A stretch of 64,000 bases of DNA from Eledone cirrhosa. Taxonomy: Eukaryota. The notes below the pieces were generated by a model. The model was not told the origin of the DNA, searched no databases, and saw only the letters and a list, made by a program, of their open reading frames with translations. Position numbers and translations under genes: made by a program. Each line of letters opens with the position of its first letter. Position 1 is the first letter of the stretch. Below are positions 1 through 29,300 of the stretch, one piece after another. The stretch spans positions 210,552,001 to 210,616,000 of the forward strand of contig OZ024740.1 in the NCBI GenBank assembly GCA_964016885.1, in the 5' to 3' direction.

Positions 1-122
1 TTTGTTGTGAGATAGACAGATAGATATATAGTTTGTTAAGAGATAGATAGATAGATAGATATATAGTTTGTTGAGAGATAGACAGATAGATATATAGTTT
101 GTTGTGAGATAGATAGATAGAT
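1..122. repeat. 31-bp GATA-rich satellite, left fragment (runs off window)
   Basis: Monomers AGTTTGTTG(A/T)GAGATAGA(C/T)AGATAGATATAT, broken at ...GATAGATAGAT|TTCTTTATTAG. Confidence 0.95.
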
Positions 123-581
123 TTCTTTATTAGCCACAAGGGCGCAACAAGAAAGGGGACAATACAAAGACATGCCGGGGATTTTACATACAGTCGTGTA
201 AAAAATATAAAAACAAACAATTTCAACAATCGAAATCCCCAATAGGGGGGAGGCGCCACAAATGGGTTGTTTAATACCCCGTCGATAGAACAACCCTCAA
301 CTCAAGGAGCGTGTTGTGCAAGTGCTCCTTTCTTCCTTTTGCTCTCTTCCTCAACCTACAGGCTTATAAACAGAGAAGGCCCAATCACTCGGGCCATTTT
401 CGCTTCATTCACCCACCTTTCAGTAAATTTACTGGGGTGCAGTGCCTCTCTCTCCACCCTGATTCTCCTTCTAAAGTGATACTTAAAGAATGGAATCAAT
501 TGTTGTCCGGAGAGAAAGGCATCTGTCCTCAGTCCTCTCAACCTCGTCCACCATATAACTTCTTTCACTATAGCCACCGTA
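123..581 (-). mobile_element. Tx1-type non-LTR retrotransposon, heavily 5'-truncated (subfamily A, copy 1)
   Basis: Encodes the ORF2 C-terminus (VAIVKEVIWWTRLRGL...GPSLFISL*, stop at 356) plus a 3' UTR ending GCTAATAAAGAAAT. Nearly identical to 23762-24200. Flanked by a ~12-bp AGATAGATAGAT duplication. Confidence 0.9.
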
Positions 582-687
582 GATAGATAGATATATAGTT
601 TGTTGAGAGATAGATAGATAGATATATAGTTTGTTGAGAGATAGACAGATAGATATATAGTTTGTTGAGAGATAGACAGATAGATAT
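582..687. repeat. 31-bp satellite, ~3 monomers between Tx1 copy 1 and the CR1 insertion
   Basis: Same monomer; ends ...GACAGATAGATAT|TATGGCC. Confidence 0.95.
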
Positions 688-1703
688 TATGGCCTTTTGC
701 AATGGCAGACAAGTATATATATATATAATATATAAGAAGCAAAGAAAATTTCAATGATACGAAAGATTTCCTGGTGGAAGTTCAGGTGTACTCAGGGTTG
801 GTATCCAGTTTCGGGGTGAAAATCCAACGAATTTTGAGAGGTCCACATAAGCATTGATATATATATGTATGTAAAATGTAAACAGAAATAACAACACATA
901 TGACTAAAAAATGGCGACAAGGAAGGTCGCTTGACCACGTCTTGACCAAACAAAATATAATATTTTCACCTAAAACTGCCCTTTAAACACATGTCAGATG
1001 GATTACAATATTCATTATTACAATTACTTTCACTGTTCCCTGACAACTAGTACCAGTTTCAAGATAGAATTATCTTAACGAAGTATATATAATTTGACTT
1101 GATTTTCGCCAACGAACCACGTGTGGACATGGACGGGGAAAAAAGGAAAACAAAACAAAACAAATCACTACATCCCTTAAGGATCGCAGTAAGTACTCCA
1201 CAAAACATATAAACAACAATATACACACAGATTTATATACAGATATATACCATATGCATATACACACACACGTGAAAAGAAACCACACTATTGCGTGTGA
1301 GACACTATACCGGCCAATTTTACCAATTTACATTGGTAAAATATTTCTTAACATTGACTTCGCTTCTAACCCACATACACCTTTTAATTATATATATATA
1401 CTAGCAGCTGAAAGTTAATAATTTGAAAAAAAAATATTATTGAAAGTTTACTATAAAGAAGCAGTATCAGGGGAAAAAAAAAACAAAAAAAAAACGTTAT
1501 TCGCTGTTAATAAACAACTGCCTTCTACAGTACGTTTCATTTAACTTACGCAGCATATTTATTTGTTTACATGCACAGACTCTTCTACACACACACAACA
1601 TTTAGGAAAACGGAAACAAAATCCACAAAAAAACAGACATTTTATTTCTATCGTAATCAAGTGCGCTAAACCTATATTGTTTACATTCTGTGTTTTTCTA
1701 CGG

Positions 1704-2929
1704 ATGGGTAGAAATAACAAAATTGCCATGGTGATATCCATCGATGAAATTTGCGACAAAACTGGTCGATGTCCAAAAATAGAACATTGCCCGGAAGATC
1801 ACACCTGCCATATCTATACGGAACCCGAAAACTCGTTCCGTAATCGTTGGGTCGAATGTGGAACCTGTCGCATCTCTGCCTTCAATGCGCCACAGGCTTC
1901 CGGAAGATCCCAGGCCAAAATAAGAAACATCATATTGCTACGAAGGATAGACTCTGGGAGATGGTCCAGCTAACAAACTGGTCCTTTCAGTGCCTGGACT
2001 GTATGCCTGCTTCTCCCATTGCTGCGGAACAACAACAAAGACCGAAGATCGTGTCTTCTACCATTGTTCCTGAACAACAACAACAAAAACCGAGGATCGT
2101 GTCTTCCTCTACCATTGTCGCTGAACAACAGCAAAAACCAACGACCGTAGCTTCTGCTACTACCCCCGTTGAAGGACTTCATCAACAACAGCAACCCATG
2201 TCTTCCTCACCCGTTACTTTTCAACAACAACAACCGACGACTGTGTCTTCTACCATGCCTGTTGAAGGAGAAGAACAACAACAAAAACCGACCGTCAATA
2301 CGGAGTTTGAGGAAATACGGCAAATGATTTCCGCTTTAAGTCAAGAAATAGCGGAAATAAAATCAAGCGTTCGTGTAGAACCCCACAATGAGGGATCTTA
2401 CCGGAGTGCCTTGTTAAAAAATCTCCGCGTACCTCATGTTGAACCTAGACGCATTGAGAATGCCACTGAATCTGCAAACCACGAAGTGATTGCCATTGGT
2501 GTGCCGGAAGACATAGTTGATCTTCAGGCATTTGCTGCCAGTTCATCCAAAGACCTGGGCTGTGCTCCCGCAAAGGGTGCTCTACGCCTTGGCCGACCAG
2601 GCCCGAAACCCAGGTTAATTAGACTGTCGTTTTCAAACTCGGCTGAGGCACGTTCATACCTTGTAGCCTCTGATAAAGCTAGGCGTGAAAGTCGGATTGC
2701 TTTCCGAACACGTCCTGGTCTTCCACCTGATGTCCGCCCAAAGTTGCGTGCTGCAGCTTCCCTAAACCGCAGCTCGGCAGAACATGAAAGCTTCAGCCTA
2801 CGAGATGATGGGCAGATATGGAAGTTTGTTAAGGCTGGCGAATCATGGAAAAGAGACACCAGCTGGTCTGAAAACAGTGTACCCACAACAACTGACAATA
2901 AAGAAACTGAAAAAACTCTGGGAAACTAA
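1704..2929 (+). pseudogene. CR1 ORF1 (PHD-like finger, Q-rich repeats, coiled coil, RRM-like domain), frameshifted near 1875
   Basis: HTCHIY...WVECGTC in ORF 1563..1973 continues as CLQC...WSFQCLDC in ORF 1847..2929. EFEEIRQMISALSQEIAEIK is coiled-coil-like. VIAIGVPE...RLG...PRLIRLSF is a typical LINE ORF1 RRM-like signature. Ends GN*. Confidence 0.75.
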
Positions 2930-5729
2930 ATCAGAACAACCTGCCATCCCCTGCACATAATCATAGACTGGAATCAAAGTACAAACTGTTGTCCTTGAAT
3001 GCACGTAGTCTATGCAATAAGATTCATCTTTTTGACTCCTACGTCAAAAGTATCAACCCGGACTTCATTACAGTCACGGAAACTTGGGCACATCCCTTAC
3101 TCTGTGATGGGGTTTTCAGCATGACTGGCTACAACCTGTTTCGTAAAGACCGTATTAATCATCGTGGTGGTGGTGTAATGGTCTACGTTCGGTCAAATCT
3201 GTCGGCAATTCCTTGTGCTGATTTGAACCAATCACAGCAGGAAGTTTTTTTCTGCGATATACGTATGACCATGTCAACACTGCTACTTGGAGTCGTTTAC
3301 CGTCCCCCAAATTACCATCAGGACACTCAACTTTGTGATATCCTCAGAGCTGCTGCCAGGAAGACAGCCACTTATGTTTTCATTCCAGGTGACTTCAATC
3401 ACCCTGAGATTGACTGGGAGACCTTTCGTTGGCCGCCAAGTGCAAATGACTTCCTTGAGCTGGTGCTGGACTCGAGTTGGTCCCAGGTGGTCACCTCCCC
3501 AACGAGAGGTGACAACACTTTGGACCTACTCTTCACCACTACTCCTGAAACGGTCATTAGTGTTACTGCTGAGGAACCTTTAGGTGACTCTGATCATGCT
3601 ATGATCATTGCCAATCTATCCCTCATGGGCAGTAACAAGAACCACAACCATCTCCAAACTGCTCACTTTGACTGGAATAAAGCAGACTGGAACTGTTACT
3701 GCACCGAGTTGCAACGGCCAAACTGGCTTGAGTTCTATGACTCTGGAGATGTCAACACTGTACTCCAGAACATCCTGAGCTCAATATGGACAGCATGTGC
3801 AGCATTGGTGCCACGTAAGCGGAAAAAACATCCTAAAAGCGCAATTTGGGAGACTGCAGCAGTCCGTCTTGCCAGAAAAGAACGGCGCAATGCTGAACGT
3901 GAGTACAAACTTCACAAATCAGACATTAATAGGAAGAGGCGAAATAGATCGTCCAACCACCTCAAACAGGTGACAAAAAAGGCAGTGCTTCAATTTGAGC
4001 AGCGCATAGCAACCAGCCCTGACAGTAAGGTGTTCTGGAAGTATGTTCACTCAAAGCAGAGGCCTCACTCTCCAGTTGGTCCTCTTCGCAATCCCCACAC
4101 AAGCCAGGTTACTGACGACCCCAAGGAATGCGCAGAGCTCATTGCTGAATGCTATGCAGGCATTTTCACCATTGAAGACCAGAGTGTACCATCTCCACCA
4201 CCTATGACACCGGACTCTATTACAACCATGGAATTTACACCTGCAATGCTGCGACGTCACCTAAAAAATAAACGCAACCATGCCTCTCCTGGTCTTGATG
4301 GTGTTACGTACCTGCTTCTTAAACGTGGTGGGTACTTCCTTCTACACCAGTTATCACGCTTCTTCCAATTCTGTCTGAACAACAGTGCTACTCCAGAACA
4401 GTGGAAAACTGCCAGTGTCATTCCTCTGTTCAAAAAGGGTGACCGCACATCACCTGTGAACTATCGTCCAGTCAGTCTTACTAGTTGCATCGCCAAACTG
4501 ATGGAATCCTGTGTCAGAGAAACACTTTGGAACTTCTGGAGCTCTCACAGTCTTATCCGGCCCTCGCAATTTGGATTTATCCCCAACTCCAGCTGCTGTG
4601 ATCAATTTATAGAGTTTCTTGAGGACATCACCCGGATCACTGATGGCGGCTCATGGGTGGATGTTGTTTACCTTGACTTTGCGAAGGCCTTCAATTCTGT
4701 GCCACACAAAAGGCTTATGGCAAAACTCTCTGCAATGGGCGTGAAGGATGATCTTTTTAACTGGTTGAAGTCCTTCATTCTCAGTCGAAGAGAGGTAGTC
4801 ACGGTTCTGGGACAGCATTCCTCACCATATGAGATGTCATCTGGTGTACCTCAGGGATCTGTTCTTGGCCTCCTTTTGTTTGTGGCATATATTAATGACA
4901 TAGATGCCAACTTAAGGAATGCCACAGTACTAAAGTACGCAGACGACATCAAGCTGTACCTTGAGATAAAAAGGACAGATCCTGAACACTATAGATCTTG
5001 CTTGCAGTCTGACCTGGACACAATGCAACAGTGGATCTCAGACTGGCAACTCAAGCTAGCTGTGGACAAGTGCACCACCATGCATTTTGGGAGTAAAAAC
5101 CCAGCGTCCACATACTCCCTCCACAGCACTAATATCAAGAAGTCTTCCTGTGAACGTGACCTGTTACGGTCGGCAGCGATTTGCGTTGGACGAGGCACGT
5201 CTCTAAAATTGTCAAGAGGGCCGAGGGTGTCTTAGCATCACTCAGCAAGACCTTTGTCAGCCGCTCTCCAGATATCTATTTAAGGCTGTATACAGCTATG
5301 GTGCGACCACACTTAGAATTTGCATCACCAGTCTGGAACCCCTATCTTGCTCAGGACATTGACCGCCTGGAAACTGTTCAGAGACGTGCAACCAAGCAAA
5401 TACCCTCCATCAGGCATCTACCATACTCTGAGCGCCTTGCTTCCCTGGGCATGGATTCATTGAAGCTCCGACGCCTGGCAACTGACTTGGTAAACACCCA
5501 CAAAATTGTTAACCATGTTGCCAACAACAACCCTGAGTGCCTTTTCGATTTCCATGTGTCTAACACACGTGGACATGCCCACAAAGTAAGAAAACAGCAC
5601 ATTTCCCATTTTTTCACGCTCAGAGTTGCTGAAGCATGGAACAAACTACCTGCATCAGTTGTTAGCTGTCGAGACACTGCATCCTTTAAGGCCTCCATGC
5701 TTCCCGAGATCCGCCAACACTACAGCTAA
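2911..5729 (+). pseudogene. CR1 ORF2 endonuclease-reverse transcriptase, one frameshift at ~5160
   Basis: APE motifs LNARSL, VTETW, RGGGV, VYRPP, GDFN, LDLL, SDH. RT motifs SPGLDG, NYRPVSLTS, QFGF, LDFAKAF, GVPQGSVLG, YADD. CR1 C-terminal motifs VRPHLEFASPVWNPY, LETVQRRATK, TRGH, WNKLP. Confidence 0.93.
2920..2926 (+). promoter_or_regulatory. Candidate -1 ribosomal frameshift heptamer G_GGA_AAC
   Basis: ORF1 reads CTG GGA AAC TAA. The -1 frame is open from 2911 straight into the APE domain, with no ATG until 3121. Confidence 0.6.
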
Positions 5730-5790
5730 CACATACAAACATGTACTTCCCTGACATTTGTGTATTATTCTATGTACTATATTGACGAGT

Positions 5791-5845
5791 TGTAGTGCAC
5801 CTGAGCACTTTACACAATAATTTCATTATTATTATTATTATTATT
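5791..5845 (+). other. CR1 3' stem-loop and (ATT)n tail
   Basis: TGTAGTGC-ACCTGA-GCACTTTACA hairpin followed by CAATAA and TTATTATTA... Confidence 0.75.
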
Positions 5846-8800
5846 TATATATAGTTTGCTGTGAGATAGACAGATAGATATATAGTTTGTTGTGAGATAG
5901 ATAGATATGTATATAGTTTGTTGTGAGATAGACAGATAGATATATAGTTTGTTGTGAGATATACAGATAGATATATAGTTTGTTGAGAGATAGACAGATA
6001 GATATATAGTTTGTTGAGAGATAGACAGATAGATATATAGTTTGTTGAGAGATAGATAGATAGATATATAGTTTGTTGAGAGATAGACAGATAGATATAT
6101 AGTTTGTTGAGAGATAGATAGATAGATATATAGTTTGTTGAGAGATAGACAGATAGATATATAGTTTGTTGAGAGATAGACAGATAGATATATAGTTTGT
6201 TGTGAGATAGATAGATAGATATATAGTTTGTTGAGAGATAGATAGATAGATATATAGTTTGTTGTGAGATAGATAGATAGATATATAGTTTGTTGAGAGA
6301 TAGACAGATAGATATATAGTTTGTTGTGAGATAGACAGATATATAGTTTGTTGTGAGATAGATAAATAGATATATAGTTTGTTGAGAGATAGACAGATAG
6401 ATATATAGTTTGTTGTGAGACAGATAGATATATAGTTTGTTGTGAGATAGATAGATATATAGTTTGTTGTGAGATAGATATATAGTTTGTTGTGAGATAG
6501 ACTGATAGATATATAGTTTGTTGAGAGATAGACAGATAGATATATAGTTTACTGAGAGATAGACAGATAGATATATAGTTTGTTGTGAGATAGACAGATA
6601 GATATATAGTTTGTTGAGAGATAGACAGATAGATATATAGTTTGTTGTGAGATAGACAGATAGATATATAGTTTGTTGTGAGATAGACAGATAGATATAT
6701 AGTTTACTGAGACATAGACAGATAGATATATAGTTTATTGAGAGATAGACAGATAGATATATAGTTTGTTGTGAGATAGACAGATAGATATATAGTTTGT
6801 TGAGAGATAGACAGATAGATATATAGTTTGTTGAGAGATAGACAGATAGATATATAGTTTGTTGTGAGATAGATAGATAGATATATAGTTTGTTGAGAGA
6901 TAGACAGATAGATATATAGTTTGTTGAGAGATAGATAGCTAGATATATAGTTTGTTGTGAGATAGACAGATAGATATATAGTTTGTTGTGAGATAGACAG
7001 ATAGATATATAGTTTGTTGAGAGATAGACAGATAGATATATAGTTTGTTGAGAGATAGACAGATAGATATATAGTTTGTTGAGAGATAGATAGATAGATA
7101 TATAGTTTGTTGAGAGATAGATAGATAGATATATAGTTTGTTGGGAGATAGATAGATAGATATATAGTTTGTTGAGAGATAGACAGATAGATATATAGTT
7201 TGTTGAGAGATAGATAGATATATAGTTTGTTGTGAGATAGACAGATAGATATACAGTTTGTTGAGAGATAGATAGATAGATATATAGTCTGTTGTGAGAT
7301 AGACAGATAGATATATAGTTTGTTGTGAGATAGATAGATAGATATATAGTTTGTTGTGAGATAGACAGATAGATATATAGTTTGTTGTGAGATAGATAGA
7401 TAGATATATAGTTTGTTGAGAGATAGATAGATAGATATATAGTTTGTTGAGAGATAGACAGATAGATATATAGTTTGTTGAGAGATAGACAGATAGATAT
7501 ATAGTTTGTTGAGAGATAGATATATAGTTTGTTGTGAGATAGACAGATAGATATATAGTTTGTTGTGAGATAGATAGATAGATATATAGTTTGTTGAGAG
7601 ATAGATAGATAGATATATAGTTTGTTGTGAGATAGACAGATAGATATATAGTTTGTTGTGAGATAGATATATAGATATATAGTTTGTTGTGAGATAGATA
7701 GATAGATATATAGTTTGTTGAGAGATAGATAGATAGATATATAGTTTGTTGAGAGATAGACAGATAGATATATAGTTTGTTGAGAGATAGACAGATAGAT
7801 ATACAGTTTGTTGAGAGATAGACAGATAGATATATAATTTGTTGAGAGATAGATAGATATATAGTTTGTTGAGAGATAGACAGATGGATATATAGTTTGT
7901 TGAGAGATAGATAGATAGATATATAGTTTGTTGAGAGATAGACAGATAGATATACAGTTTGTTGAGAGATAGATAGATAGATATATAGTCTGTTGTGAGA
8001 TAGACAGATAGATATATAGTTTGTTGAGAGATAGATAGATAGATATATAGTTTGTTGTGAGATAGACAGATAGATATACAGTTTGTTGAGAGATAGATAG
8101 ATAGATATATAGTCTGTTGTGAGATAGACAGATAGATATATAGTTTGTTGTGAGATAGATAGATAGATATATAGTTTGTTGTGAGATAGACAGATAGATA
8201 TATAGTTTGTTGTGAGATAGATAGATAGATATATAGTTTGTTGAGAGATAGATAGATAGATATATAGTTTGTTGAGAGATAGATAGATAGATATATAGTT
8301 TGTTGAGAGATAGACAGATAGATATATAGTTTGTTGAGAGATAGACAGATAGATATATAGTTTGTTGAGAGATAGATAGATAGATATATAGTTTGTTGTG
8401 AGATAGACAGATAGATATATAGTTTGTTGTGAGATAGATAGATAGATAGATATATAGTTTGTTGAGAGATAGATAGATAGATATATAGTTTGTTGTGAGA
8501 TAGATAGATAGATATATAGTTTGTTGAGAGATAGATAGATAGATATATAGTTTGTTGTGAGATAGACAGATAGATATATAGTTTGTTGTGAGATAGACAG
8601 ATAGATATATAGTTTGTTGTGAGATAGATAGATAGATATATAGTTTGTTGTGAGATAGATATATAGATATATAGTTTGTTGTGAGATAGATAGATAGATA
8701 TATAGTTTGTTGTGAGATAGACAGCTAGATATATAGTTTGTTGAGAGATAGATAGATAGATAGATATATAGTTTGTTGAGAGATAGACAGATAGATATAC

Positions 8801-11800
8801 AGTTTGTTGAGAGATAGACAGATAGATATATAGTTTGTTGAGAGATAGATAGATAGATATATAGTTTGTTGAGAGATAGACAGATAGATATATAGTTTGT
8901 TGAGAGATAGACAGATAGATATATAGTTTATTGAGAGATAGACAGATAGATATATAGTTTGTTGTGAGATAGACAGATAGATATATAGTTTGTTGTGAGA
9001 TAGACAGATATATAGTTTGTAGAGAGATAGATAGATAGACATATAGTTTGTTGTGAGATAGACAGATAGATATACAGTTTGTTGAGAGATAGATAGATAG
9101 ATATATAGTCTGTTGTGAGATAGACAGATAGATATATAGTTTGTTGTGAGATAGATAGATAGATATATAGTTTGTTGTGAGATAGACAGATAGATATATA
9201 GTTTGTTGAGAGATAGATAGATAGATATATAGTTTGTTGTGAGATAGACAGATAGATATATAGTTTGTTGTGAGATAGACAGATAGATATATAGTTTGTT
9301 GTGAGATAGACAGATAGATATATAGTTTGTTGAGAGATAGATAGATAGATATATAGTTTGTTGTGAGATAGACAGATAGATATATAGTTTGTTGTGAGAT
9401 AGACAGATAGATATACAGTTTGTTGAGAGATAGACAGATAGATATACAGTTTGTTGTGAGATAGACAGATATATATATAGTTTGTTGTGAGATAGATAGA
9501 TATGTAGTTTGTTGAGAGATAGACAGATAGATATACAGTTTGTTGTGAGATAGATAGATATATAGTTTGTTGAGAGATAGACAGATAGATATATAGTTTG
9601 TTGAGAGATAGATAGATAGATATATAGTTTGTTGAGAGATAGATAGATAGATATATAGTTTGTTGAGAGATAGACAGATAGATATATAGTTTGTTGTGAG
9701 ATAGACAGATATATAGTTTGTTGTGAGATAGATAAATAGATATATAGTTTGTTGAGAGATAGACAGATAGATATATAGTTTGTTGTGAGACAGATAGATA
9801 TATAGTTTGTTGTGAGATAGATAGATATATAGTTTGTTGTGAGATAGATATATAGTTTGTTGTGAGATAGACTGATAGATATATAGTTTGTTGAGAGATA
9901 GACAGATAGATATATAGTTTACTGAGAGATAGACAGATAGATATATAGTTTGTTGTGAGATAGACAGATAGATATATAGTTTGTTGAGAGATAGACAGAT
10001 AGATATATAGTTTGTTGTGAGATAGACAGATAGATATATAGTTTGTTGTGAGATAGACAGATAGATATATAGTTTACTGAGACATAGACAGATAGATATA
10101 TAGTTTATTGAGAGATAGACAGATAGATATATAGTTTGTTGTGAGATAGACAGATAGATATATAGTTTGTTGAGAGATAGACAGATAGATATATAGTTTG
10201 TTGAGAGATAGACAGATAGATATATAGTTTGTTGTGAGATAGATAGATAGATATATAGTTTGTTGAGAGATAGACAGATAGATATATAGTTTGTTGAGAG
10301 ATAGATAGCTAGATATATAGTTTGTTGTGAGATAGACAGATAGATATATAGTTTGTTGTGAGATAGACAGATAGATATATAGTTTGTTGAGAGATAGACA
10401 GATAGATATATAGTTTGTTGAGAGATAGACAGATAGATATATAGTTTGTTGAGAGATAGATAGATAGATATATAGTTTGTTGAGAGATAGATAGATAGAT
10501 ATATAATTTGTTGGGAGATAGATAGATAGATATATAGTTTGTTGAGAGATAGACAGATAGATATATAGTTTGTTGAGAGATAGATAGATATATAGTTTGT
10601 TGTGAGATAGACAGATAGATATACAGTTTGTTGAGAGATAGATAGATAGATATATAGTCTGTTGTGAGATAGACAGATAGATATATAGTTTGTTGTGAGA
10701 TAGATAGATAGATATATAGTTTGTTGTGAGATAGACAGATAGATATATAGTTTGTTGTGAGATAGATAGATAGATATATAGTTTGTTGAGAGATAGATAG
10801 ATAGATATATAGTTTGTTGAGAGATAGACAGATAGATATATAGTTTGTTGAGAGATAGACAGATAGATATATAGTTTGTTGAGAGATAGATATATAGTTT
10901 GTTGTGAGATAGACAGATAGATATATAGTTTGTTGTGAGATAGATAGATAGATATATAGTTTGTTGAGAGATAGATAGATAGATATATAGTTTGTTGTGA
11001 GATAGACAGATAGATATATAGTTTGTTGTGAGATAGATATATAGATATATAGTTTGTTGTGAGATAGATAGATAGATATATAGTTTGTTGAGAGATAGAT
11101 AGATAGATATATAGTTTGTTGAGAGATAGACAGATAGATATATAGTTTGTTGAGAGATAGACAGATAGATATACAGTTTGTTGAGAGATAGACAGATAGA
11201 TATATAATTTGTTGAGAGATAGATAGATATATAGTTTGTTGAGAGATAGACAGATGGATATATAGTTTGTTGAGAGATAGATAGATAGATATATAGTTTG
11301 TTGAGAGATAGACAGATAGATATACAGTTTGTTGAGAGATAGATAGATAGATATATAGTCTGTTGTGAGATAGACAGATAGATATATAGTTTGTTGAGAG
11401 ATAGATAGATAGATATATAGTTTGTTGTGAGATAGACAGATAGATATACAGTTTGTTGAGAGATAGATAGATAGATATATAGTCTGTTGTGAGATAGACA
11501 GATAGATATATAGTTTGTTGTGAGATAGATAGATAGATATATAGTTTGTTGTGAGATAGACAGATAGATATATAGTTTGTTGTGAGATAGATAGATAGAT
11601 ATATAGTTTGTTGAGAGATAGATAGATAGATATATAGTTTGTTGAGAGATAGATAGATAGATATATAGTTTGTTGAGAGATAGACAGATAGATATATAGT
11701 TTGTTGAGAGATAGACAGATAGATATATAGTTTGTTGAGAGATAGATAGATAGATATATAGTTTGTTGTGAGATAGACAGATAGATATATAGTTTGTTGT

Positions 11801-13634
11801 GAGATAGATAGATAGATAGATATATAGTTTGTTGAGAGATAGATAGATAGATATATAGTTTGTTGTGAGATAGATAGATAGATATATAGTTTGTTGAGAG
11901 ATAGATAGATAGATATATAGTTTGTTGTGAGATAGACAGATAGATATATAGTTTGTTGTGAGATAGACAGATAGATATATAGTTTGTTGTGAGATAGATA
12001 GATAGATATATAGTTTGTTGTGAGATAGATATATAGATATATAGTTTGTTGTGAGATAGATAGATAGATATATAGTTTGTTGTGAGATAGACAGCTAGAT
12101 ATATAGTTTGTTGAGAGATAGATAGATAGATAGATATATAGTTTGTTGAGAGATAGACAGATAGATATACAGTTTGTTGAGAGATAGACAGATAGATATA
12201 TAGTTTGTTGAGAGATAGATAGATAGATATATAGTTTGTTGAGAGATAGACAGATAGATATATAGTTTGTTGAGAGATAGACAGATAGATATATAGTTTA
12301 TTGAGAGATAGACAGATAGATATATAGTTTGTTGTGAGATAGACAGATAGATATATAGTTTGTTGTGAGATAGACAGATATATAGTTTGTAGAGAGATAG
12401 ATAGATAGATATATAGTTTGTTGTGAGATAGACAGATAGATATACAGTTTGTTGAGAGATAGATAGATAGATATATAGTCTGTTGTGAGATAGACAGATA
12501 GATATATAGTTTGTTGTGAGATAGATAGATAGATATATAGTTTGTTGTGAGATAGACAGATAGATATATAGTTTGTTGAGAGATAGATAGATAGATATAT
12601 AGTTTGTTGTGAGATAGACAGATAGATATATAGTTTGTTGTGAGATAGACAGATAGATATATAGTTTGTTGTGAGATAGACAGATAGATATATAGTTTGT
12701 TGAGAGATAGATAGATAGATATATAGTTTGTTGTGAGATAGACAGATAGATATATAGTTTGTTGTGAGATAGACAGATAGATATACAGTTTGTTGAGAGA
12801 TAGACAGATAGATATACAGTTTGTTGTGAGATAGACAGATATATATATAGTTTGTTGTGAGATAGATAGATATGTAGTTTGTTGAGAGATAGACAGATAG
12901 ATATACAGTTTGTTGTGAGATAGATAGATATATAGTTTGTTGAGAGATAGACAGATAGATATATAGTTTGTTGAGAGATAGATAGATAGATATATAGTTT
13001 GTTGAGAGATAGATAGATAGATATATAGTTTGTTGAGAGATAGACAGATAGATATATAGTTTGTTGAGAGATAGATAGATAGATATATAGTCTGTTGTGA
13101 GATAGATAGATAGATATATAGTTTGTTGGGAGATAGACAGATAGATATATAGTTTGTTGTGAGATAGATAGATAGATATATAGTTTGTTGAGAGATAGAT
13201 AGATAGATATATAGTTTGTTGAGAGATAGATAGATAGATATATAGTTTGTTGAGAGATAGACAGATAGATATATAGTTTGTTGAGAGATAGATAGATAGA
13301 TATATAGTTTGTTTTGAGTTAGACAGATAGATATAGTTTGTTGTGAGATAGACAGATAGATATATAGTTTGTTGTGAGATAGATAGATAGATATATAGTT
13401 TATTGAGAGATACATAGATAGATATAGTTTGTTGTGAGATAGACAGATAGATATATAGTTTGTTGTGAGATAGATAGATAGATATATAGTTTATTGAGAG
13501 ATACATAGATAGATATATAGTTTGTTGTGAGATAGACAGATAGATATATAGTTTGTTGAGAGATAGACAGATAGATATATAGTTTGTTGAGAGATAGACA
13601 GATAGATATATAGTTTGTTGAGAGATAGATATAT
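5846..13634. repeat. 31-bp satellite block containing a 3370-bp tandem duplication
   Basis: Period 31 with 23/27/35-bp variants. Rare variants recur at offset 3370. Confidence 0.97.
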
Positions 13635-16151: not shown

Positions 16152-19100
16152 ATATATATATAGTTTGTTGTGAGATAGACAGATAGATATATAGTTTGTT
16201 GTGAGATAGACAGATAGATATATAGTTTGTTGAGAGATAGACAGATAGATATATAGTTTGTTGAGAGATAGACAGATAGATATATAGTTTGTTGAGAGAT
16301 AGACAGATAGATATATAGTTTGTTGTGAAATAGATAGATATATAGTATGTTGAGAGATAGACAGATAGATATATAGTTTGTTGAGAGATAGACAGATAGA
16401 TATATAGTTTGTTGAGAGATAGACAGATAGATATATAGTTTGTTGAGAGATAGACAGATAGATATATAGTTTGTTGAGAGATAGACAGATAGATATATAG
16501 TTTGTTGAGAGATAGACAGATAGATATATAGTTTGTTGTGAGATAGATAGATAGACAGATAGATATATAGTTTGTTGAGAGAGACAGATAGATATATAGT
16601 TTGTTGAGAGATAGACAGATAGATATATAGTTTGTTGTGACATAGATAGATAGACAGATAGATATATAGTTTGTTGAGAGATAGACAGATAGATATATAG
16701 TTTGTTGAGAGATAGACAGATAGATATATAGTTTATGGTGAGATAGATAGATATATAGTTTGTTGAGAGATAGACAGATAGATATATAGTTTATTGAGAG
16801 ATAGACAGATAGATATATAGTTTGTTGAGAGATAGACAGATAGATATATAGTTTGTTGAGAGATAGACAGATAGATATATAGTTTGTTGTGAAATAGATA
16901 GATATATAGTATGTTGAGAGATAGACAGATAGATATATAGTTTGTTGTGAGATAGACAGATAGATATATAGTTTGTTGAGAGATAGATAGATAGATATAT
17001 AGTTTGTTGAGAGATAGACAGATAGATATATAGTTTGTTGTGAGATAGACAGATAGATATATAGTTTGTTGTGAGATAGACAGATAGATATATAGTTTGT
17101 TGAGAGATAGACAGATAGATATATAGTTTGTTGAGAGATAGATAGATAGATATATAGTTTGTTGTGAGACAGACAGATAGATATATAGTTTATTGAGAGA
17201 TAGACAGATAGATATATAGTTTGTTGAGAGATAGATAGATATATAGTTTGTTGAGAGATAGATAGATAGATATATAGTTTGTTGTGAGATAGACAGATAG
17301 ATATATAGTTTGTTGTGAGATAGGTAGATATATAGTTTGTTGAGAGATAGACAGATAGATATATAGTTTGTTGAGAGATAGATAGATAGATATATAGTTT
17401 GTTGATAGATAGACAGATAGATATATAGTTTGTTGTGAGATAGACAGATAGATAGATAGATATATAGTTTATTGAGAGATAGATAGATAGATATATAGTT
17501 TGTTGAGAGATAGATAGATAGATATATAGTTTGTTGAGAGATAGATAGATATATATATAGTTTGTTGTGAGATAGACAGATAGATATATAGTTTGTTGTG
17601 AGATAGACAGATATATATATATAGTTTGTTGAGAGATAGATAGATAGATATATAGTTTGTTGAGAGATAGATAGATATATAGTTTGTTGTGAGATAGACA
17701 GATAGATATATAGTTTGTTGAGAGATAGATAGATAGATATATAGTTTGTTGAGAGATAGACAGATAGATATATAGTTTGTTGTGAGATAGATAGATATAT
17801 AGTTTGTTGAGAGATAGATAGATATATAGTTTGTTGTGAGATAGATAGATATAGAGTTTGTTGTGAGATAGATAGATATATAGTTTGTTGAGAGATAGAT
17901 AGATATATAGTTTGTTGAGAGATAGATAGATAGATATATAGTTTGTTGAGAGATAGATAGATATATAGTTTGTTTTGAGATAGATAGATATATAGTTTGT
18001 TGTGAGATAGATAGATATATAGTTTGTTGAGAGATAGACAGATAGATATATAGTTTGTTGAGAGATAGATAGATAGATATATAGTTTGTTGATAGATAGA
18101 CAGATAGATATATAGTTTGTTGTGAGATAGACAGATAGATAGATAGATATATAGTTTGTTGAGAGATAGATAGATAGATATATAGTTTGTTGAGAGATAG
18201 ATAGATAGATATATAGTTTGTTGAGAGATAGATAGATAGATAGATATATAGTTTCTTGTGAGATAGACAGATAGATATATAGTTTGTTGTGAGATAGACA
18301 GATATATATATATAGTTTGTTGAGAGATAGACAGATATATATATAGTTTGTTGTGAGATAGACAGATATATATATATAGTTTGTTGAGAGATAGATAGAT
18401 ATATAGTTTGTTGTGAGATAGATAGATATATAGTTTGTTGAGAGATAGACAGATAGATATATAGTTTGTTGTGAGATAGATATATAGTTTATTGAGAGAT
18501 AGATATATAGTTTGTTGTGAGATAGATAGATAGATATATAGTTTGTTGAGAGATAGACAGATAGATATATAGTTTGTTGAGAGATAGATAGATATATAGT
18601 TTGTTGTGAGATAGATAGATATATAGTTTGTTGTGAGATAGATATATAGTTTATTGAGAGATAGATAGATAGATAGATATATAGTTTGTTGTGAGATAGA
18701 TAGATAGACAGATAGATATATAGTTTGTTGAGAGATAGACAGATAGATATATAGTTTGTTGTGAGATAGATAGATAGACAGATAGATATATAGTTTGTTG
18801 AGAGATGAACAGATAGATATATAGTTTGTTGAGAGATAGACAGATAGATATATAGTTTGTTGAGAGATAGACAGATAGATATATAGTTTGTTGTGAGATA
18901 GATAGATATATAGTTTGTTGAGAGATAGACAGATAGATATATAGTTTGTTGTGAGATAGACAGATAGATATATAGTTTGTTGTGAGATAGACAGATAGAT
19001 ATATAGTTTGTTGTGAGATAGACAGATAGATATATAGTTTGTTGAGAGATAGACAGATAGATATATAGTTTGTTGAGAGATAGATAGATAGATATATAGT

Positions 19101-22100
19101 TTGTTGTGAGATAGACAGATAGATATATAGTTTATTGAGAGATAGACAGATAGATATATAGTTTGTTGAGAGATAGATAGATATATAGTTTGTTGAGAGA
19201 TAGATAGATAGATATATAGTTTGTTGTGAGATAGACAGATAGATATATAGTTTGTTGTGAGATAGGTAGATATATAGTTTGTTGTGAGATAGATAGATAT
19301 ATAGTTTGTTGTGAGATAGATAGATATATAGTTTGTTGAGAGATAGACAGATAGATATATAGTTTGTTGTGAGATAGATAGATAGACAGATAGATATATA
19401 GTTTGTTGAGAGATAGACAGATAGATATATAGTTTGTTGAGAGATAGACAGATAGATATATAGTTTGTTGTGAGATAGACAGATAGATATATAGTTTGTT
19501 GTGAGATAGATAGATAGATATATAGTTTGTTGTGAGATAGACAGATAGATATATAGTTTATTGAGAGATAGATAGATAGATATATAGTTTGTTGAGAGAT
19601 AGACAGATAGATATATAGTTTGTTGTGAGATAGACAGATAGATATATAGTTTGTTGTGAGATAGACAGATAGATATATAGTTTGTTGTGAGATAGACAGA
19701 TAGATATATAGTTTGTTGAGAGATAGACAGATAGATATATAGTTTGTTGAGAGATAGATAGATATATAGTTTGTTGTGAGATAGACAGATAGATATATAG
19801 TTTGTTGTGAGATAGGTAGATATATAGTTTGTTGTGAGATAGATAGATATATAGTTTGTTGTGAGATAGATAGATATATAGTTTGTTGAGAGATAGACAG
19901 ATAGATATATAGTTTGTTGAGAGATAGATAGATAGATATATAGTTTGTTGATAGATAGACAGATAGATATATAGTTTGTTGTGAGATAGACAGATAGATA
20001 GATAGATATATAGTTTATTGAGAGATAGATAGATAGATATATAGTTTGTTGAGAGATAGATAGATAGATATATAGTTTGTTGAGAGATAGATAGATAGAT
20101 ATATAGTTTGTTGTGAGATAGACAGATATATATATATAGTTTGTTGAGAGATAGACAGATATATATATAGTTTGTTGTGAGATAGATAGATAGATATATA
20201 GTTTGTTGAGAGATAGATAGATATATAGTTTGTTGTGAGATAGACAGATAGATATATAGTTTGTTGAGAGATAGATAGATAGATATATAGTTTGTTGAGA
20301 GCTAGACAGATAGATATATAGTTTGTTGTGACATAGATAGATAGATATATAGTTTGTTGAGAGATAGACAGATAGATATATAGTTTGTTGTGAGATAGAT
20401 AGATATATAGTTTGTTGAGAGATAGATAGATATATAGTTTGTTGAGAGATAGATAGATATATAGTTTGTCGTGTGATAGATAGATATATAGTTTGTTGTG
20501 AGATAGATAGATATATAGTTTGTTGAGAGATAGACAGATAGATATATAGTTTGTTGAGAGATAGATAGATAGATATATAGTTTGTTGAGAGATAGATAGA
20601 TAGATATATAGTTTGTTGATAGATAGACAGATAGATATATAGTTTGTTGAGAGATAGATAGATAGATATATAGTTTGTTGAGAGATAGATAGATAGATAT
20701 ATAGTTTGTTGAGAGATAGATAGATAGATAGATATATATATAGTTTGTTGTGAGATAGACAGATAGATATATAGTTTGTTGTGAGATAGACAGATATATA
20801 TATATATAGTTTGTTGAGAGATAGACAGATATATATATAGTTTGTTGTGAGATAGACAGATATATATATATAGTTTGTTGAGAGATAGATAGATATATAG
20901 TTTGTTGTGAGATAGATAGATAGATATATAGTTTGTTGAGAGATAGACAGATAGATATATAGTTTGTTGTGAGATAGATATATAGTTTATTGAGAGATAG
21001 ATATATAGTTTGTTGTGAGATAGATAGATAGATATATAGTTTGTTGAGAGATAGACAGATAGATATATAGTTTGTTGAGAGATAGATAGATATATAGTTT
21101 GTTGTGAGATAGATATATAGTTTATTGAGAGATAGATAGATAGATATATAGTTTGTTGTGAGATAGATAGATAGATAGATATATAGTTTGTTGAGAGATA
21201 GACAGATAGATATATAGTTTGAGAGATAGACAGATAGATATATAGTTTGTTGTGAGATAGATAGATAGATATATAGTTTGTTGTGAGAGAGACAGATAGA
21301 TATATAGTTTACTGAGAGATAGACAGATAGATATATAGTTTGTTGAGAGATAGACAGATAGATATATAGTTTGTTGAGAGATAGATATATAGTTTGTTGA
21401 GAGATAGACAGATATATAGTTTGTTGTGAGATAGATAGATAGATATATAGTTTGTTGAGAGATAGATAGATAGATATATAGTTTGTTGTGAGATAGACAG
21501 ATAGATATATAGTTTACTGAGAGGTAGACAGATAGATATATAGTTTATTGAGAGATAGACAGATAGATATATAGTTTGTTGTGAGATAGACAGATATATA
21601 GTTTGTTGTGAGATAGATAGATAGATATATAGTTTGTTGAGAGATAGACAGATAGATATATAGTTTGTTGTGAGATAGATAGATAGATATATAGTTTGTT
21701 GAGAGATAGATAGATATATAGTTTGTTGAGAGATAGACAGATAGATATATAGTTTGTTGAGAGATAGACAGATAGATATATAGTTTGTTGTGAGATAGAC
21801 AGATAGATATATAGTTTGTTGTGAGATAGACAGATAGATATATAGTTTGTTGTGAGATAGATAGATAGATATATAGTTTGTTGAGACATAGACAGATAGA
21901 TATATAGTTTGTTGTGAGATAGATAGATAGATATATAGTTTGTTGAGAGATAGACAGATAGATATATAGTTTGTTGAGAGATACACAGATAGATATATCG
22001 TTTATTGAGAGATAGACAGATAGATATATAGTTTGTTGAGAGATAGACAGATAGATATATAGTTTGTCGTGAGATAGATAGATATATATATAGTTTGTTG

Positions 22101-23761
22101 AGAGATAGACAGATAGATATATAGTTTGTTGAGAGACAGATAGATATATAGTTTGTTGAGAGATAGACAGATAGATATATAGTTTGTTGAGAGATAGACA
22201 GATAGATATATAGTTTGTTGAGAGATAGACAGATAGATATATAGTTTGTTGTGAGATAGACAGATAGATATATAGTTTATTGAGAGATAGATAGATAGAT
22301 ATATAGTTTGTTGAGAGATAGACAGATAGATATATAGTTTATTGAGAGATAGATAGATAGATATATAGTTTGTTGTGAGATAGATAGATAGATAGATATA
22401 TAGTTTGTTGAGAGATAGACAGATAGATATATAGTTTGAGAGATAGACAGATAGATATATAGTTTGTTGTGAGATAGATAGATAGATATATAGTTTGTTG
22501 TGAGAGAGACAGATAGATATATAGTTTACTGAGAGATAGACAGATAGATATATAGTTTGTTGAGAGATAGACAGATAGATATATAGTTTGTTGAGAGATA
22601 GATATATAGTTTGTTGAGAGATAGACAGATATATAGTTTGTTGTGAGATAGATAGATAGATATATAGTTTGTTGAGAGATAGATAGATAGATATATAGTT
22701 TGTTGTGAGATAGACAGATAGATATATAGTTTACTGAGAGGTAGACAGATAGATATATAGTTTATTGAGAGATAGACAGATAGATATATAGTTTGTTGTG
22801 AGATAGACAGATATATAGTTTGTTGTGAGATAGATAGATAGATATATAGTTTGTTGAGAGATAGACAGATAGATATATAGTTTGTTGTGAGATAGATAGA
22901 TAGATATATAGTTTGTTGAGAGATAGATAGATATATAGTTTGTTGAGAGATAGACAGATAGATATATAGTTTGTTGAGAGATAGACAGATAGATATATAG
23001 TTTGTTGTGAGATAGACAGATAGATATATAGTTTGTTGTGAGATAGACAGATAGATATATAGTTTGTTGTGAGATAGATAGATAGATATATAGTTTGTTG
23101 AGACATAGACAGATAGATATATAGTTTGTTGTGAGATAGATAGATAGATATATAGTTTGTTGAGAGATAGACAGATAGATATATAGTTTGTTGAGAGATA
23201 CACAGATAGATATATCGTTTATTGAGAGATAGACAGATAGATATATAGTTTGTTGAGAGATAGACAGATAGATATATAGTTTGTCGTGAGATAGATAGAT
23301 ATATATATAGTTTGTTGAGAGATAGACAGATAGATATATAGTTTGTTGAGAGACAGATAGATATATAGTTTGTTGAGAGATAGACAGATAGATATATAGT
23401 TTGTTGAGAGATAGACAGATAGATATATAGTTTGTTGAGAGATAGACAGATAGATATATAGTTTGTTGTGAGATAGACAGATAGATATATAGTTTATTGA
23501 GAGATAGATAGATAGATATATAGTTTGTTGAGAGATAGACAGATAGATATATAGTTTATTGAGAGATAGATAGATAGATATATAGTTTGTTGTGAGATAG
23601 ACAGATATATATATAGTTTGTTGAGAGATAGATAGATAGATATATAGTTTGTTGTGAGATAGATAGATATATAGTTTGTTGAGAGATAGATAGATAGATA
23701 TATAGTTTGTTGAGAGATAGATAGATAGATATATAGTTTGTTGTGAGATAGACAGATAGAT
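16152..23761. repeat. 31-bp satellite block containing a 1217-bp tandem duplication
   Basis: Same monomer; identical translated ORFs at 21309 and 22526 (offset 1217). Confidence 0.97.
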
Positions 23762-26378
23762 TTCTTTATTAGCCACAAGGGCGCAACAAGAAAGGGGACA
23801 ATACAAAGACATGCCGGGGATTTTACATACAGTCGTGTAAAAAATATAAAAACAAACAATTTCAACAATCGAAATCCCCAATAGGGCGGAGGCGCCACAA
23901 ATGGGTTGTTTAATACCCCGTCGATAGAACAACCCTCAACTCAAGGAGCGTGTTGTGCAAGTGCTCCTTTCTTCCTTTTGCTCTCTTCCTCAACCTACAG
24001 GCTTATAAACAGAGAAGGCCCAATCACTCGGGCCATTTTCGCTTCATTCACCCACCTTTCAGTAAATTTACTGGGGTGCAGTGCCTCTCTCTCCACCCTG
24101 ATTCTCCTTCTAAAGTGATACTTAAAGAATGGAATCAATTGTTGTCCGGAGAGAAAGGCATCTGTCCTCAGTCCTCTCAACCTCGTCCACCATAGCCACC
24201 GTACAGAGGAAAACCGCCTCTCTTTCGTTTTTGAAAGAGTCTGGCGGTTTGATCCTTACTATGGACTCGGCAGTCAACTGTATTTGTCCCATACGCGACA
24301 GCAGTTGTTCTGCATAGTTCCACAGGTCGCTTACGCCCGGGCAGTGTACAATTGCGTGCAGAACTGTTTCAATGTCCTGCGCACATCTTGGACACGTCCT
24401 CTTGGAAGGATCCCTGCCAGGGCGTCCGTGCCTGTAGATCTTGTCACGAACCGGTAGAGCTCCTCGGTAGCACTGCCAGGCCAGGCACCTCTGGAAGTTG
24501 TCCATAGGTCCCGGGCGGAAAGTCCTACCAAACATACTGGTGAGCTCATCGTCTTCGACACCCAGAGTCTCTCCGAGCACGTCGTCGCCCTTGTAACGTA
24601 CAATCCCTGTATAGAATGTCGAAGTGGAGTCTCCACTGATTGCTGCGCCCGCTTGCCAGAGGACTGTGAGCGCCTGAGCGCATTCAATGTGCCAGGCGCC
24701 CATCGTTTTCGGTCTTTTCTTCACCCAGGACTGCAGCTCCGTTAGCGAGACAAGCTGTGGGAAAGCCTGTCTCACAAACGGTGCCCACACCGGTTGGGGG
24801 TCGGTGAGGAATACCTGGAGATGCCGCAGCCTTAGCGCATGTTTGCGCATCATCAGCCACGGCATTCCCAGCCCTCCGTTGGAAGGGTGCTGACAGCAGA
24901 CGGATCTCCTCACCAGCGGAGCCTGCTTCTTCCACAGAAACTGGAAGAGCATGCGTTCCATCTTGGCGAGGTGTTCACGGGGACAAGGCACGACAGTCAA
25001 GCGGTAGTAGATGACGGACGCTATGAAAGTGTTCGCCACCTCCGCTCGACCTTTCAAGGACAGTTTGCACTCTGCCCACTTCTGAGTGAGTGCAAACACC
25101 TTGGCCGTGACCTCGTTCCAGTTTTTCTCCACCTGGAGGTCTGGACCGAACCAGACCCCGAGCAATTTCACCGGTCCGTCCGTCCAGCGTCCAATGACGC
25201 TGTCGGATGTCATCGGTTTGCCTCTCCACGTGCCGAGTTGCAAACCGACAGACTTGTCTGGGTTTAGTTTTGCTCCCGTCAGCGTTTCGTATTCTTTCAG
25301 TAAGTTGCCGATCACCCCGATTTCCGAGGTGCTCGACACCATTACTGTCACGTCGTCGGCATAAGCCGACGCCGCTTTGCGCAGTCCCGGTTCTAGGGGG
25401 ATGCCCTGCAACAGCTCCAATTTCCGCAGTAGTGGCTCTAGAGTCAATACATACAGAATGGAGGAGAGAGGGCATCCCTGTCGAATGGAACGCGTGATTG
25501 CGAACGGCTCCGATAGGTAGCCGTTCACCTTGACCCTCGAGCAGATGCTGGTGTGCATCGCCTCGATCCATCCTCTGAACACGGGACCGAAACCGGCCGC
25601 CTTGAGAACCGCTTCCAAGTATCGATGGTCGACCCTATCGAATGCCTTAGACTGATCCAAGTTGATCAGAGCCCCACCGAAGCCGGGTTTACTACCCACC
25701 CTCTCTATGATGTATCGCATGAGGTGGAGGTTGTCGTGTATGGACCTGGTCGGGATTGCACACGTTTGCGCTTTCCCTACCAGGTTCTCGACGACAAGCG
25801 CCAATCTCGTCGCTAGCACCTTGGCCAAAATCTTTAACCCTGTGTTGAGTAGAGTTATGGGCCTGAAGTTGTTAATTTCGTCCCCCTTGTTCTCGTCTTT
25901 CCTGATCAGCGTTACTACGCCCTTGCCTGCAGAACTGGGAATTCTCCCGTTCTGCTGCCAATTGCAGTAGACGGCTTCGAGGACGCCAGAGAACAAGTCC
26001 GGCATGCCTATGTAAAATTCGTAGGGTAGACCATCTAGACCGGGTGACTTGCGTTTCCCGCAGCGGCCCAGAGCGTCCCGTATCTCAGTGTCCGTAATCG
26101 GTCTTTCGCAGAACTCGGCGCCCGTGTTCGAGAGACGCGGCAGGCCGTCGAGGTATGAACTAAAGTCCATTGCCCCGTTCGGCTCACCGTCGTTCTGCTC
26201 AAACAGTCGCGCAAAGTGCCGCTGAAAGGCCGCGCACATTTGCTTGGGGTCAAGTAGCACGCGTCCGTTTTGATCTTTCAAAGACAGAATCGTGGACTTG
26301 TTGCCACTTTTTGCCTCCGCCACCCGGTCCCAGCTGACAGCTTTCGCTCCATCGTTTCCTAGAGCACGTGTTTTGCTT
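23762..26378 (-). mobile_element. Tx1-type retrotransposon, 5'-truncated, young (subfamily A, copy 3)
   Basis: Contains the RT ORF below. 3' end GTGGCTAATAAAGAAAT. Flanked by an ~8-bp AGATAGAT duplication. Confidence 0.93.
23995..26378 (-). pseudogene. Tx1 ORF2 RT and zf-RVT region (endonuclease lost by truncation, 17-bp deletion at ~24193)
   Basis: 733-aa ORF with KSPGLDGLPYEFY, NFRPITLLNT, LDQSKAFDRVDH, RQGCPLS, AYADD, KLLGVWF and CPRC...H...C. The true C-terminus is in ORF 23995..24180. Confidence 0.92.
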
Positions 26379-29300
26379 AGATAGATATATAGTTTGTTGA
26401 GAGATAGACAGATAGATATATAGTTTATTGAGAGATAGACAGATAGATATATAGTTTGTTGAGAGATAGATAGATAGATATATAGTTTGTTGAGAGATAG
26501 ACAGATAGATATATAGTTTGTTGTGAGATAGATAGATAGATATATAGTTTGTTGAGAGATAGACAGATAGATATATAGTTTGTTGTGAGATAGATATATA
26601 GTTTATTGAGAGATAGATATATAGTTTGTTGTGAGATAGATAGATAGATATATAGTTTGTTGAGAGATAGACAGATAGATATATAGTTTGTTGAGAGATA
26701 GATAGATATATAGTTTGTTGTGAGATAGATATATAGTTTATTGAGAGATAGATATATAGTTTGTTGTGAGATAGATAGATAGATATATAGTTTGTTGAGA
26801 GATAGACAGATAGATATATAGTTTGAGAGATAGACAGATAGATATATAGTTTGTTGTGAGATAGATAGATAGATATATAGTTTGTTGTGAGATAGATAGA
26901 TAGATATATAGTTTGTTGTGAGATAGACAGATAGATATATAGTTTACTGAGAGATAGACAGATAGATATATAGTTTGTTGTGAGATAGACAGATAGATAT
27001 ATAGTTTGCTGTGAGATAGACAGATAGATATACAGTTTGTTGAGAGATAGACAGATAGATATATAGTTTGTTGAGAGATAGATAGATAGATATATAGTTT
27101 GTTGAGAGATAGACAGATATATAGTTTGTTGTGAGATAGATAGATAGATATATAGTTTGTTGAGAGATAGATAGATAGATATATAGTTTGTTGTGAGATA
27201 GACAGATAGATATATAGTTTACTGAGAGATAGACAGATAGATATATAGTTTATTGAGAGATAGACAGATAGATATATAGTTTGTTGAGAGATAGATAGAT
27301 AGATATATAGTTTGTTGTGAGATAGACAGATATATAGTTTGTTGTGAGATAGATAGATAGATATATAGTTTGTTGAGAGATAGACAGATAGATATATAGT
27401 TTGTTGTGAGATAGATAGATAGATATATAGTTTGTTGAGAGATAGACAGATAGATATATAGTTTGTTGAGAGATAGACAGATAGATATATAGTTTGTTGA
27501 GAGATAGACAGATAGATATATAGTTTGTTGTGAGATAGACAGATAGATATATAGTTTGTTGTGAGATAGATAGATAGATATATAGTTTGTTGAGACATAG
27601 ACAGATAGATATATAGTTTGTTGTGAGATAGACAGATAGATATATAGTTTGTTGAGAGATACACAGATAGATATATAGTTTATTGAGAGATAGACAGATA
27701 GATATATAGTTTGTTGAGAGATAGACAGATAGATATATAGTTTGTCGTGAGATAGATAGATATATATATAGTTTGTTGAGAGATAGACAGATAGATATAT
27801 AGTTTGTTGAGAGACAGATAGATATATAGTTTGTTGAGAGATAGACAGATAGATATATAGTTTGTTGAGAGATAGACAGATAGATATATAGTTTATTGAG
27901 AGATAGACAGATAGATATATAGTTTGTTGAGAGATAGACAGATAGATATATAGTTTGTTGTGAGATAGACAGATAGATATATAGTTTATTGAGAGATAGA
28001 TAGATAGATATATAGTTTGTTGAGAGATAGACAGATAGATATATAGTTTATTGAGAGATAGACAGATAGATATATAGTTTGTTGTGAGATAGACAGACAT
28101 CTATATAGTTTGTTGAGAGATAGATAGATAGATATATAGTTTGTTGTGAGATAGATAGATATATAGTTTGTTGACAGATAGATAGATAGATATATAGTCT
28201 GTTGTGAGATAGACAGATAGATATATAGTTTGTTGAGAGATAGATAGATAGATATATAGTTTGTTGTGAGATAGATAGATATATAGTTTGTTGACAGATA
28301 GATAGATAGATATATAGTTTGTTGAGAGATAGACAGATAGATATATAGTTTGTTGTGAGATAGATAGATAGATATATAGTTTGTTGAGAGATAGACAGAT
28401 AGATATATAGTTTGTTGAGAGCTAGATAGATAGATATATAGTTTGTTGTGAGATAGATATATAGTTTATTGAGAGATAGATATATAGTTTGTTGTGAGAT
28501 AGATAGATAGATATATAGTTTGTTGAGAGATAAACAGATAGATATATAGTTTGAGAGATAGACAGATAGATATATAGTTTGTTGTGAGATTGATAGATAG
28601 ATATATAGTTTGTTGTGAGATAGATAGATAGATAGATAGATAGATAGTTTGTTGTGAGATAGACAGATAGATATATAGTTTACTGAGAGATAGACAGATA
28701 GATATATAGTTTGTTGTGATATAGACAGATAGATATATAGTTTGTTGTGAGATAGACAGATAGATATACAGTTTGTTGAGAGATAGACAGATAGATATAT
28801 AGTTTGTTGAGAGATAGATAGATAGATATATAGTTTGTTGAGAGATAGACAGATATATAGTTTGTTGTGAGATAGATAGATATATAGTTTGTTGAGAGAT
28901 AGATAGATAGATATATAGTTTGTTGAGAGATAGATAGATAGATATATAGTTTGTTGTGAGATAGATAGATAGATATATAGTTTACTGAGAGATAGACAGA
29001 TAGATATATAGTTTATTGAGAGATAGACAGATAGATATATAGTTTGTTGAGAGATAGATAGATAGATATATAGTTTGTTGTGAGATAGATAGATATATAG
29101 TTTGTTGTGAGATAGACAGATATATAGTTTGTTGTGAGATAGATAGATAGATATATAGTTTGTTGAGAAATAGACAGATAGATATATAGTTTGTTGTGAG
29201 ATAGATAGATAGATATATAGTTTGTTGAGAGATAGACAGATAGATGTATAGTTTGTTGAGAGATAGACAGATAGATATATAGTTTGTTGTGAGATAGACA

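Follow-up and report, generated by a model that had tools for sequence, protein, structure and literature searches.

Three LINE copies in a 31-bp satellite of the octopod Eledone cirrhosa point to an L1/Tx1-group lineage that probably targets short (GATA)n repeats

Three LINE inserts in a 31-bp satellite of Eledone cirrhosa are best explained as members of one L1/Tx1-group lineage that targets short (GATA)n repeats, the satellite being matched through the GATA runs of its monomers. We give this reading a probability of about 0.65. The analysis covered a stretch of 64,000 nt of contig OZ024740.1, hereafter called the window. Because every monomer carries a GATA run on the same strand, the satellite was a likely place of entry for such an element.

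The satellite (1..32010, + strand) is split into five blocks (1-122, 580-687, 5847-13634, 16152-23761 and 26378-32010) that total 21,261 bp. A length of exactly 31 bp was found in 413 of the 599 parsed units, while the variants, of 23-39 bp, differ by TAGA units. Each monomer contains a short TAGA/CAGA run, which consists of three units in 507 of 717 runs and reaches a maximum of six. Outside the elements, 99% of the GATAGAT sites of the window (1,158 of 1,169) are located in the satellite, all on the + strand, and beyond 32 kb the window holds only four GATA tracts, of 8 nt each. Long internal duplications of the satellite, with periods of ~3,370 and 1,217 bp, were seen as identical ORF translations at 6704-13490 and 21122-23555, respectively, and may correspond to a recent expansion of the array. 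Other repeats of the window include a cluster of RTE-like LINEs at 35670-47333, with at least two apparently nested families, one of which shows a PHD-like match after the RT; a 317-bp tandem pair at 36410-37007, which opens with a SINE-like sequence and precedes (TA)n; and a second satellite at 63168-64000, with a 47-bp unit and 97% matched copies, which continues past the end of the window.

Masking of the satellite leaves four long inserts between position 1 and ~32,000, three of which are the LINE copies, all on the minus strand and with a common 3′ end. Copy 1 (subfamily A, 123..579, or 581 when a 2-nt microhomology is counted) retains the last ~75 codons of ORF2 and the 3′ UTR. Copy 2 (subfamily B, 13635..~16151) contains RT and zf-RVT with several frameshifts, and 4 extra letters stand at its edge (16152-16155). 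Copy 3 (subfamily A, 23762..26378, with its end at 26377/8) carries an ORF of 751 aa with an RT domain (PF00078, E 7e-27) and a zf-RVT match below the cut-off. All three are 5′-truncated inside ORF2 and lack the endonuclease. In the full-length relative P0007 this domain occupies residues 14-230, whereas copy 3 sets in at residue 368 and copy 2 at residue 386, and copy 1 keeps just the last part of ORF2 and the 3′ UTR; the domain is thus absent through truncation. The fixed 3′ end, the variable 5′ truncation and the short target duplications are marks of TPRT.

Copies 1 and 3 are young, with 1 difference in 433 bases, in addition to a 17-nt deletion in copy 3 near 24195, while copies 2 and 3 are 80.2% identical over 2,557 columns. 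The satellite monomers on the left side of copies 1 and 3 differ in all 4 readable units and copy 1 keeps the 17 nt absent from copy 3, on these grounds the idea that copy 1 duplicates copy 3 was rejected, and the three copies look like separate insertion events. No further copy of the family was detected in the window by blastn with the three copies or by tblastn with three relatives; the same searches returned only weak RT matches of other LINE clades (22-28% identity).

Target duplications were read by joining the flanks of each insert and then locating the corresponding intact stretch of satellite elsewhere in the window; on either side, 40-97 nt matched exactly. On the + strand, the duplication of copy 1 is of 13 bp, or 12 (left 110..122, right 580-592; empty-site match of 48 and 95 nt), that of copy 2 is the 6-bp ATATAT (left 13629..13634, right 16156-16161; 97 and 49 nt), located in a rare 23-bp monomer, and that of copy 3 is the 8-bp AGATAGAT (left 23754..23761, right 26379-26386; 41 and 40 nt). 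The two junction positions, one for copies 1 and 3 and the other for copy 2, are 4 nt apart, which is one GATA period. Much of a first-pass annotation of this DNA is borne out by these results: it had described three minus-strand copies inside the satellite (123-581, 13635-16151 and 23762-26378) as independent insertions deprived of the endonuclease, with duplications of ~12, ~6 and ~8 bp (12-13, 6 and 8 bp by empty-site matching), 3′ junctions within 4 nt of one another in the monomer and no Tx1 copy in the 32 kb of TA-rich DNA outside the satellite.

The conserved 3′ terminus (123..169 in copy 1, minus strand) has 43 of ~47 nt in common with copy 2 and contains a weak predicted stem-loop. 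In both subfamilies this hairpin is weak (z -1.0 in copy 1 and -2.6 in copy 2 for the last 60 nt), and the fold of the 3′ UTR over 150 nt is not significant (z -0.7 and -0.9). The sense strand of all three copies ends in GCTAATAAAGAAAT, with AATAAA three bases before the end and no poly(A). The sense-strand flanks of the element are TATC/TATA and do not match the (TC)n or (TTC)n target of the Kibi/Koshi lineage.

A CR1/L2-type LINE (688..5846, + strand), which lies outside the Tx1 family and was left out of the earlier annotation, was used as a control. It is apparently full-length, with a putative 5′ UTR (688-1540), an ORF1-like frame (1844-2929), an ORF2 with one frameshift (2911-5729), an endonuclease, an RT, an (ATT)n tail ((ATT)7) and a 4-bp ATAT duplication. 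Its removal restores a canonical monomer, its orientation is opposite to that of the Tx1-type copies and it sits only 2 nt away from the position that copies 1 and 3 occupy in the monomer. Since this unrelated LINE occupies the same phase, phase alone is not peculiar to the Tx1-type family.

The proteins closest to copy 3 are 63-73% identical to it, those with a name near the top being from Argonauta hians, and one cuttlefish protein is found at 48%. Relatives that possess an endonuclease (P0005-P0011, full-length at ~1,150 aa) are 41-46% identical; of the ORF2 parts, RT and, below the cut-off, zf-RVT are present in the copies, while the APE lost from them by truncation is kept in these relatives. 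When longer proteins are considered, coral proteins annotated as TX1 and proteins of fish or frogs that carry ZCCHC3-type ORF1 domains are the best hits with a name, at E values of 1e-62 to 1e-93; plant L1 proteins reach 6e-35 at best. A 1.8-kb contig assigned to Herbaspirillum sp. contains an ORF2 fragment that is 62% identical (P0031 / P0179) and is likely host contamination in a bacterial assembly.

An RT tree was built from 33 rows chosen from ~290, a selection without Xenopus Tx1L, Kibi, Koshi, Keno or mammalian L1. The copies belong to a group of 27 rows (95/87) that also holds TX1-named, fish and plant L1 proteins; the CR1, RTE and R2-named rows fall outside it, and long branches join in the outgroup. 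The TX1-named and ZCCHC3-type rows and the copies do not make one clade in this set of rows, which holds no defining Tx1 reference. The tree places the copies in the L1 group, and the copies are likely Tx1 proper. Subfamilies A and B are sisters with a support of 100/99. The first-pass annotation had inferred that two diverged subfamilies keep one target; the two subfamilies stand (80% identical), but a common target is to be expected of such close sisters.

The chance of the observed arrangement was assessed by simulation, with 200,000 draws per model. The criterion, which was set after the data were seen and for n=3, was that three insertions all fall in the satellite, share a strand and agree in phase to within 4 nt. 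The pattern arises with p~0.0006 for uniform insertion, p~0.006 for any TpA and p~0.03 for ATAT, against 0.33 and 0.42 for the GATA-type sites GATA[GT]AT and AGATAGAT, respectively. Some sequence preference is therefore likely. A GATA-seeking element recovers the satellite and strand outcome in 91-98% of draws and the phase in 33-42%. As the satellite holds nearly all GATAGAT sites, on one strand, place, strand and phase collapse into one feature, and phase, which the GATA-site simulation yields at 0.33-0.42, was rejected as independent evidence of targeting. GATA targeting by the A- and B-type elements is supported by the fact that GATA-type sites predict satellite, strand and phase, whereas the other nulls fit poorly. 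It is worth adding that, with nearly no GATA tract outside the satellite, the window cannot separate satellite targeting from GATA targeting.

Four of 12 public runs were mapped on copy 3 with 25 nt of flank at 85% likeness, a level at which the assignment of reads to a subfamily is unsure. For three coded organisms, the matching contigs numbered 27,789, 2,976 and 39,538, while the RAD run X10 gave 181,545 reads that matched the copy 3 reference; the LINE family is abundant and diverse in the mapped runs. The organism of X10 may be another species, and this library samples satellite flanks poorly, since the satellite contains no GCATGC site. Among the 15 X10 joints listed (900 more exist), three jump from an internal position of the element to the flank immediately beyond its 3′ end. 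The first joins 24497 to 23750 (241 reads, 2 starts) through a 12-nt GATA-repeat spacer, the second joins 25060 to 23746 (110 reads, 1 start), with 17 GATA-like letters between and a GATA-repeat spacer of 33 nt, and the third, which appears in one of the tables only, joins 25069 to 23754 (77 reads), with one letter between and a GATA-repeat spacer of 9 nt. Each joint, which may be a single locus, probably corresponds to a 5′-truncated copy followed by a GATA spacer and then by the 3′ end of another copy, in a head-to-tail arrangement. Given the read length and an AATT site at 23858, the reads of the first joint would span ~100 nt of a subfamily-A-like 3′ UTR; by read length, the read of the second joint would enter the next element by only ~6 nt.

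The TTTGTTG of the satellite is absent from all three spacers, although short spacers are not expected to hold it, and the 9- and 12-nt spacers are compatible with the satellite too. The 33-nt spacer has 8 units, compared with 6 for the longest strict satellite run in the window, yet 30 of its 33 positions agree with a satellite variant. In the same run, before window position 23765, the conserved terminus adjoins (AAT)n in 2,497 reads and is joined to a different 3′ UTR (agreement 0.93); this is the largest group of loose 3′ flanks among the 24 loose ends listed (4,844 more exist). GAAATC precedes the repeat here too. These ends, which speak against one target for the entire group, belong to a relative that has either another target or an (ATT)n tail. 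Counts of reads that "run over ends" were rejected as a gauge of satellite flanks, as clipped reads may be counted. Close relatives with flanks were not found in viral contigs, prokaryote genomes or metagenomes, and a rescan of the metagenomes gave 5 distant loci (28-37% identity).

The three GATA-only spacers count in favor of (GATA)n targeting, the 33-nt one being longer than the longest strict run of the satellite, while the presence of only three copies in the window, the ATATAT duplication of copy 2 and the large group of (AAT)n flanks in X10 count against it. A family is regarded as target-specific when >20% of its copies are flanked by one sequence type (PMC4494074); here the share is 3 of 3 copies in the window, plus the three X10 GATA joints, both samples being small. 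The same ATATAT, the CR1-type LINE at the same phase and the 3′ ends of a relative adjoining (AAT)n would fit a looser preference for AT-rich simple repeats (ATAT, GATA, AAT) common to other LINEs here, the satellite being a big block of such sites. This is possible but unlikely: ATAT is palindromic, 44% of its sites are outside the satellite and its null gives p~0.03, and all three X10 flank joints are GATA.

True satellite specificity, in which the endonuclease or the RNP would read the 31-bp unit including TTTGTTG, is suggested by the location of 3 of 3 window copies inside the satellite and by the satellite-targeting Tx1 families given in the Fig. 3 legend of PMC4494074. We consider it improbable, because almost no GATA tract exists outside the satellite (four of 8 nt), which deprives the location of its power to discriminate, and because copy 2 is inserted at another offset, within a monomer variant of 23 bp, a GATA-only spacer of 33 nt occurs in X10, and the family is abundant in the three coded organisms (27,789, 2,976 and 39,538 contigs), which may or may not carry the satellite. 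Sequence unique to the satellite does not appear to be required by the window data, and the 33-nt spacer would argue against it, yet with its 30 of 33 matches to the satellite. A broad insertion without targeting, with copies that survive or get noticed in satellite heterochromatin, is in keeping with the small n, with a window chosen for its pattern and with the presence of another LINE in the array. It is nonetheless very improbable, as it leaves strand and phase unexplained (p~0.0006 for uniform insertion), copies 1 and 3, with a single difference in 433 bases, are young and GATA spacers recur across independent reads. Hence, the earlier proposal of a GATA- or satellite-specific lineage is retained for targeting and for its GATA-repeat alternative (simulation, X10 spacers), while satellite specificity is unneeded.

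With (GATA)n targeting, the APE endonuclease, absent here and present in full-length relatives, would nick the TAGA strand within a run or where the run ends. The freed 3′ end (..GAT for copies 1 and 3, ..TAT for copy 2) would prime on the tail-less 3′ end of the RNA, whose terminal AU(C) would probably assist by forming 2-3 base pairs with it. A cut in the second strand 6-13 nt away would follow, and the 5′ end would be lost. Each insertion would duplicate part of the GATA run and provide a fresh target beside the old copy, which could lead to head-to-tail stacks. That the priming strand is the purine-rich + strand follows from the orientation of the copies under established TPRT. The AT of the junction may be encoded by the element and act as microhomology. 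Since the (AAT)n-flanked relative also ends in GAAATC, the AT may be the element's own, and the exact nicked bond is ambiguous. Accordingly, the earlier suggestion of a nick in the purine-rich strand after AT is upheld for the strand (orientation, TPRT), while "after AT" is only one of several fits.

It is also conceivable, if quite unlikely, that the choice of target is inherited via the RNA tail and not through the endonuclease alone. An AATAAA three bases from the end is too close for normal cleavage. This, together with the lack of poly(A), is why read-through is proposed: transcripts without poly(A) would read on into the flanking repeat and gain a (UCUA)n tail after AAUAAAGAA, which would pair with the nicked (TAGA)n strand. 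If so, the lineage would keep whichever microsatellite its master copy occupies. The GATA- and (AAT)n-flanked ends suggest that relatives with a near-identical terminus could switch target; these relatives would then constitute a natural pair for testing a change of LINE target.

Tx1, which falls within the L1 clade (PMC3747384), is one of three groups to which most target-specific elements belong, and Utopia inserts in tandem at its target (PMC4640811). Many Tx1 families prefer a target, among which (TC)n, (TTC)n, (TTCC)n and (TTTC)n are named, and "Sat, satellites" appears among the known targets in the legend of Fig. 3 (PMC4494074). Similar to Kibi and Koshi of teleosts ((TC)n and (TTC)n) and to the crocodilian (TTCC)n/(TTTC)n Tx1 elements (PMC4494074), the Eledone copies belong to L1/Tx1-group APE-RT LINEs in a fixed orientation, and all of these targets are simple repeats with a pyrimidine-rich and a purine-rich strand. 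The difference is that the probable Eledone target is (GATA)n/(TATC)n, the likeness to Kibi and Koshi being one of target type, drawn from PMC4494074. The "Sat" families, compared by the figure legend alone, are also Tx1-type elements in satellites (PMC4494074), with the difference that in Eledone a microsatellite motif inside the monomer suffices to account for the pattern.

R1Bm and SART1Bm, of the R1 clade, are likewise APE LINEs on short repeats, and target-like letters at the 3′ end of their RNA were proposed to anneal to the nicked strand (PMC7265360). However, SART1Bm requires a poly(A) tail (PMC7265360), while the Eledone copies have no poly(A) and the pairing of their RNA is deduced from the junctions only. 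In Octopus vulgaris, 80 L1-Tx1 families were reported, 13 of them recently active with 421 insertions (PMC13282606). These are young cephalopod copies, as in Eledone, and no insertion preference is described for them in the main text, in which neither "target" nor "GATA" occurs (PMC13282606). Literature searches found no GATA-targeting Tx1, but Repbase, the 2004 screen of Kojima and Fujiwara or the supplements of PMC4494074 may already list one.

On balance, the Eledone copies probably behave like elements with Kibi/Koshi-type microsatellite targeting; targeting of this sort is known, and the target itself did not turn up in the literature searched. The finding, of modest import, would add (GATA)n, in an octopod, to the list of Tx1-type targets and indicates that apparent satellite targeting can be microsatellite targeting within the monomer. 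If relatives with nearly the same 3′ end use GATA and AAT, respectively, they would offer a tractable system in which the endonuclease and RNA-target pairing could be compared as the source of specificity.
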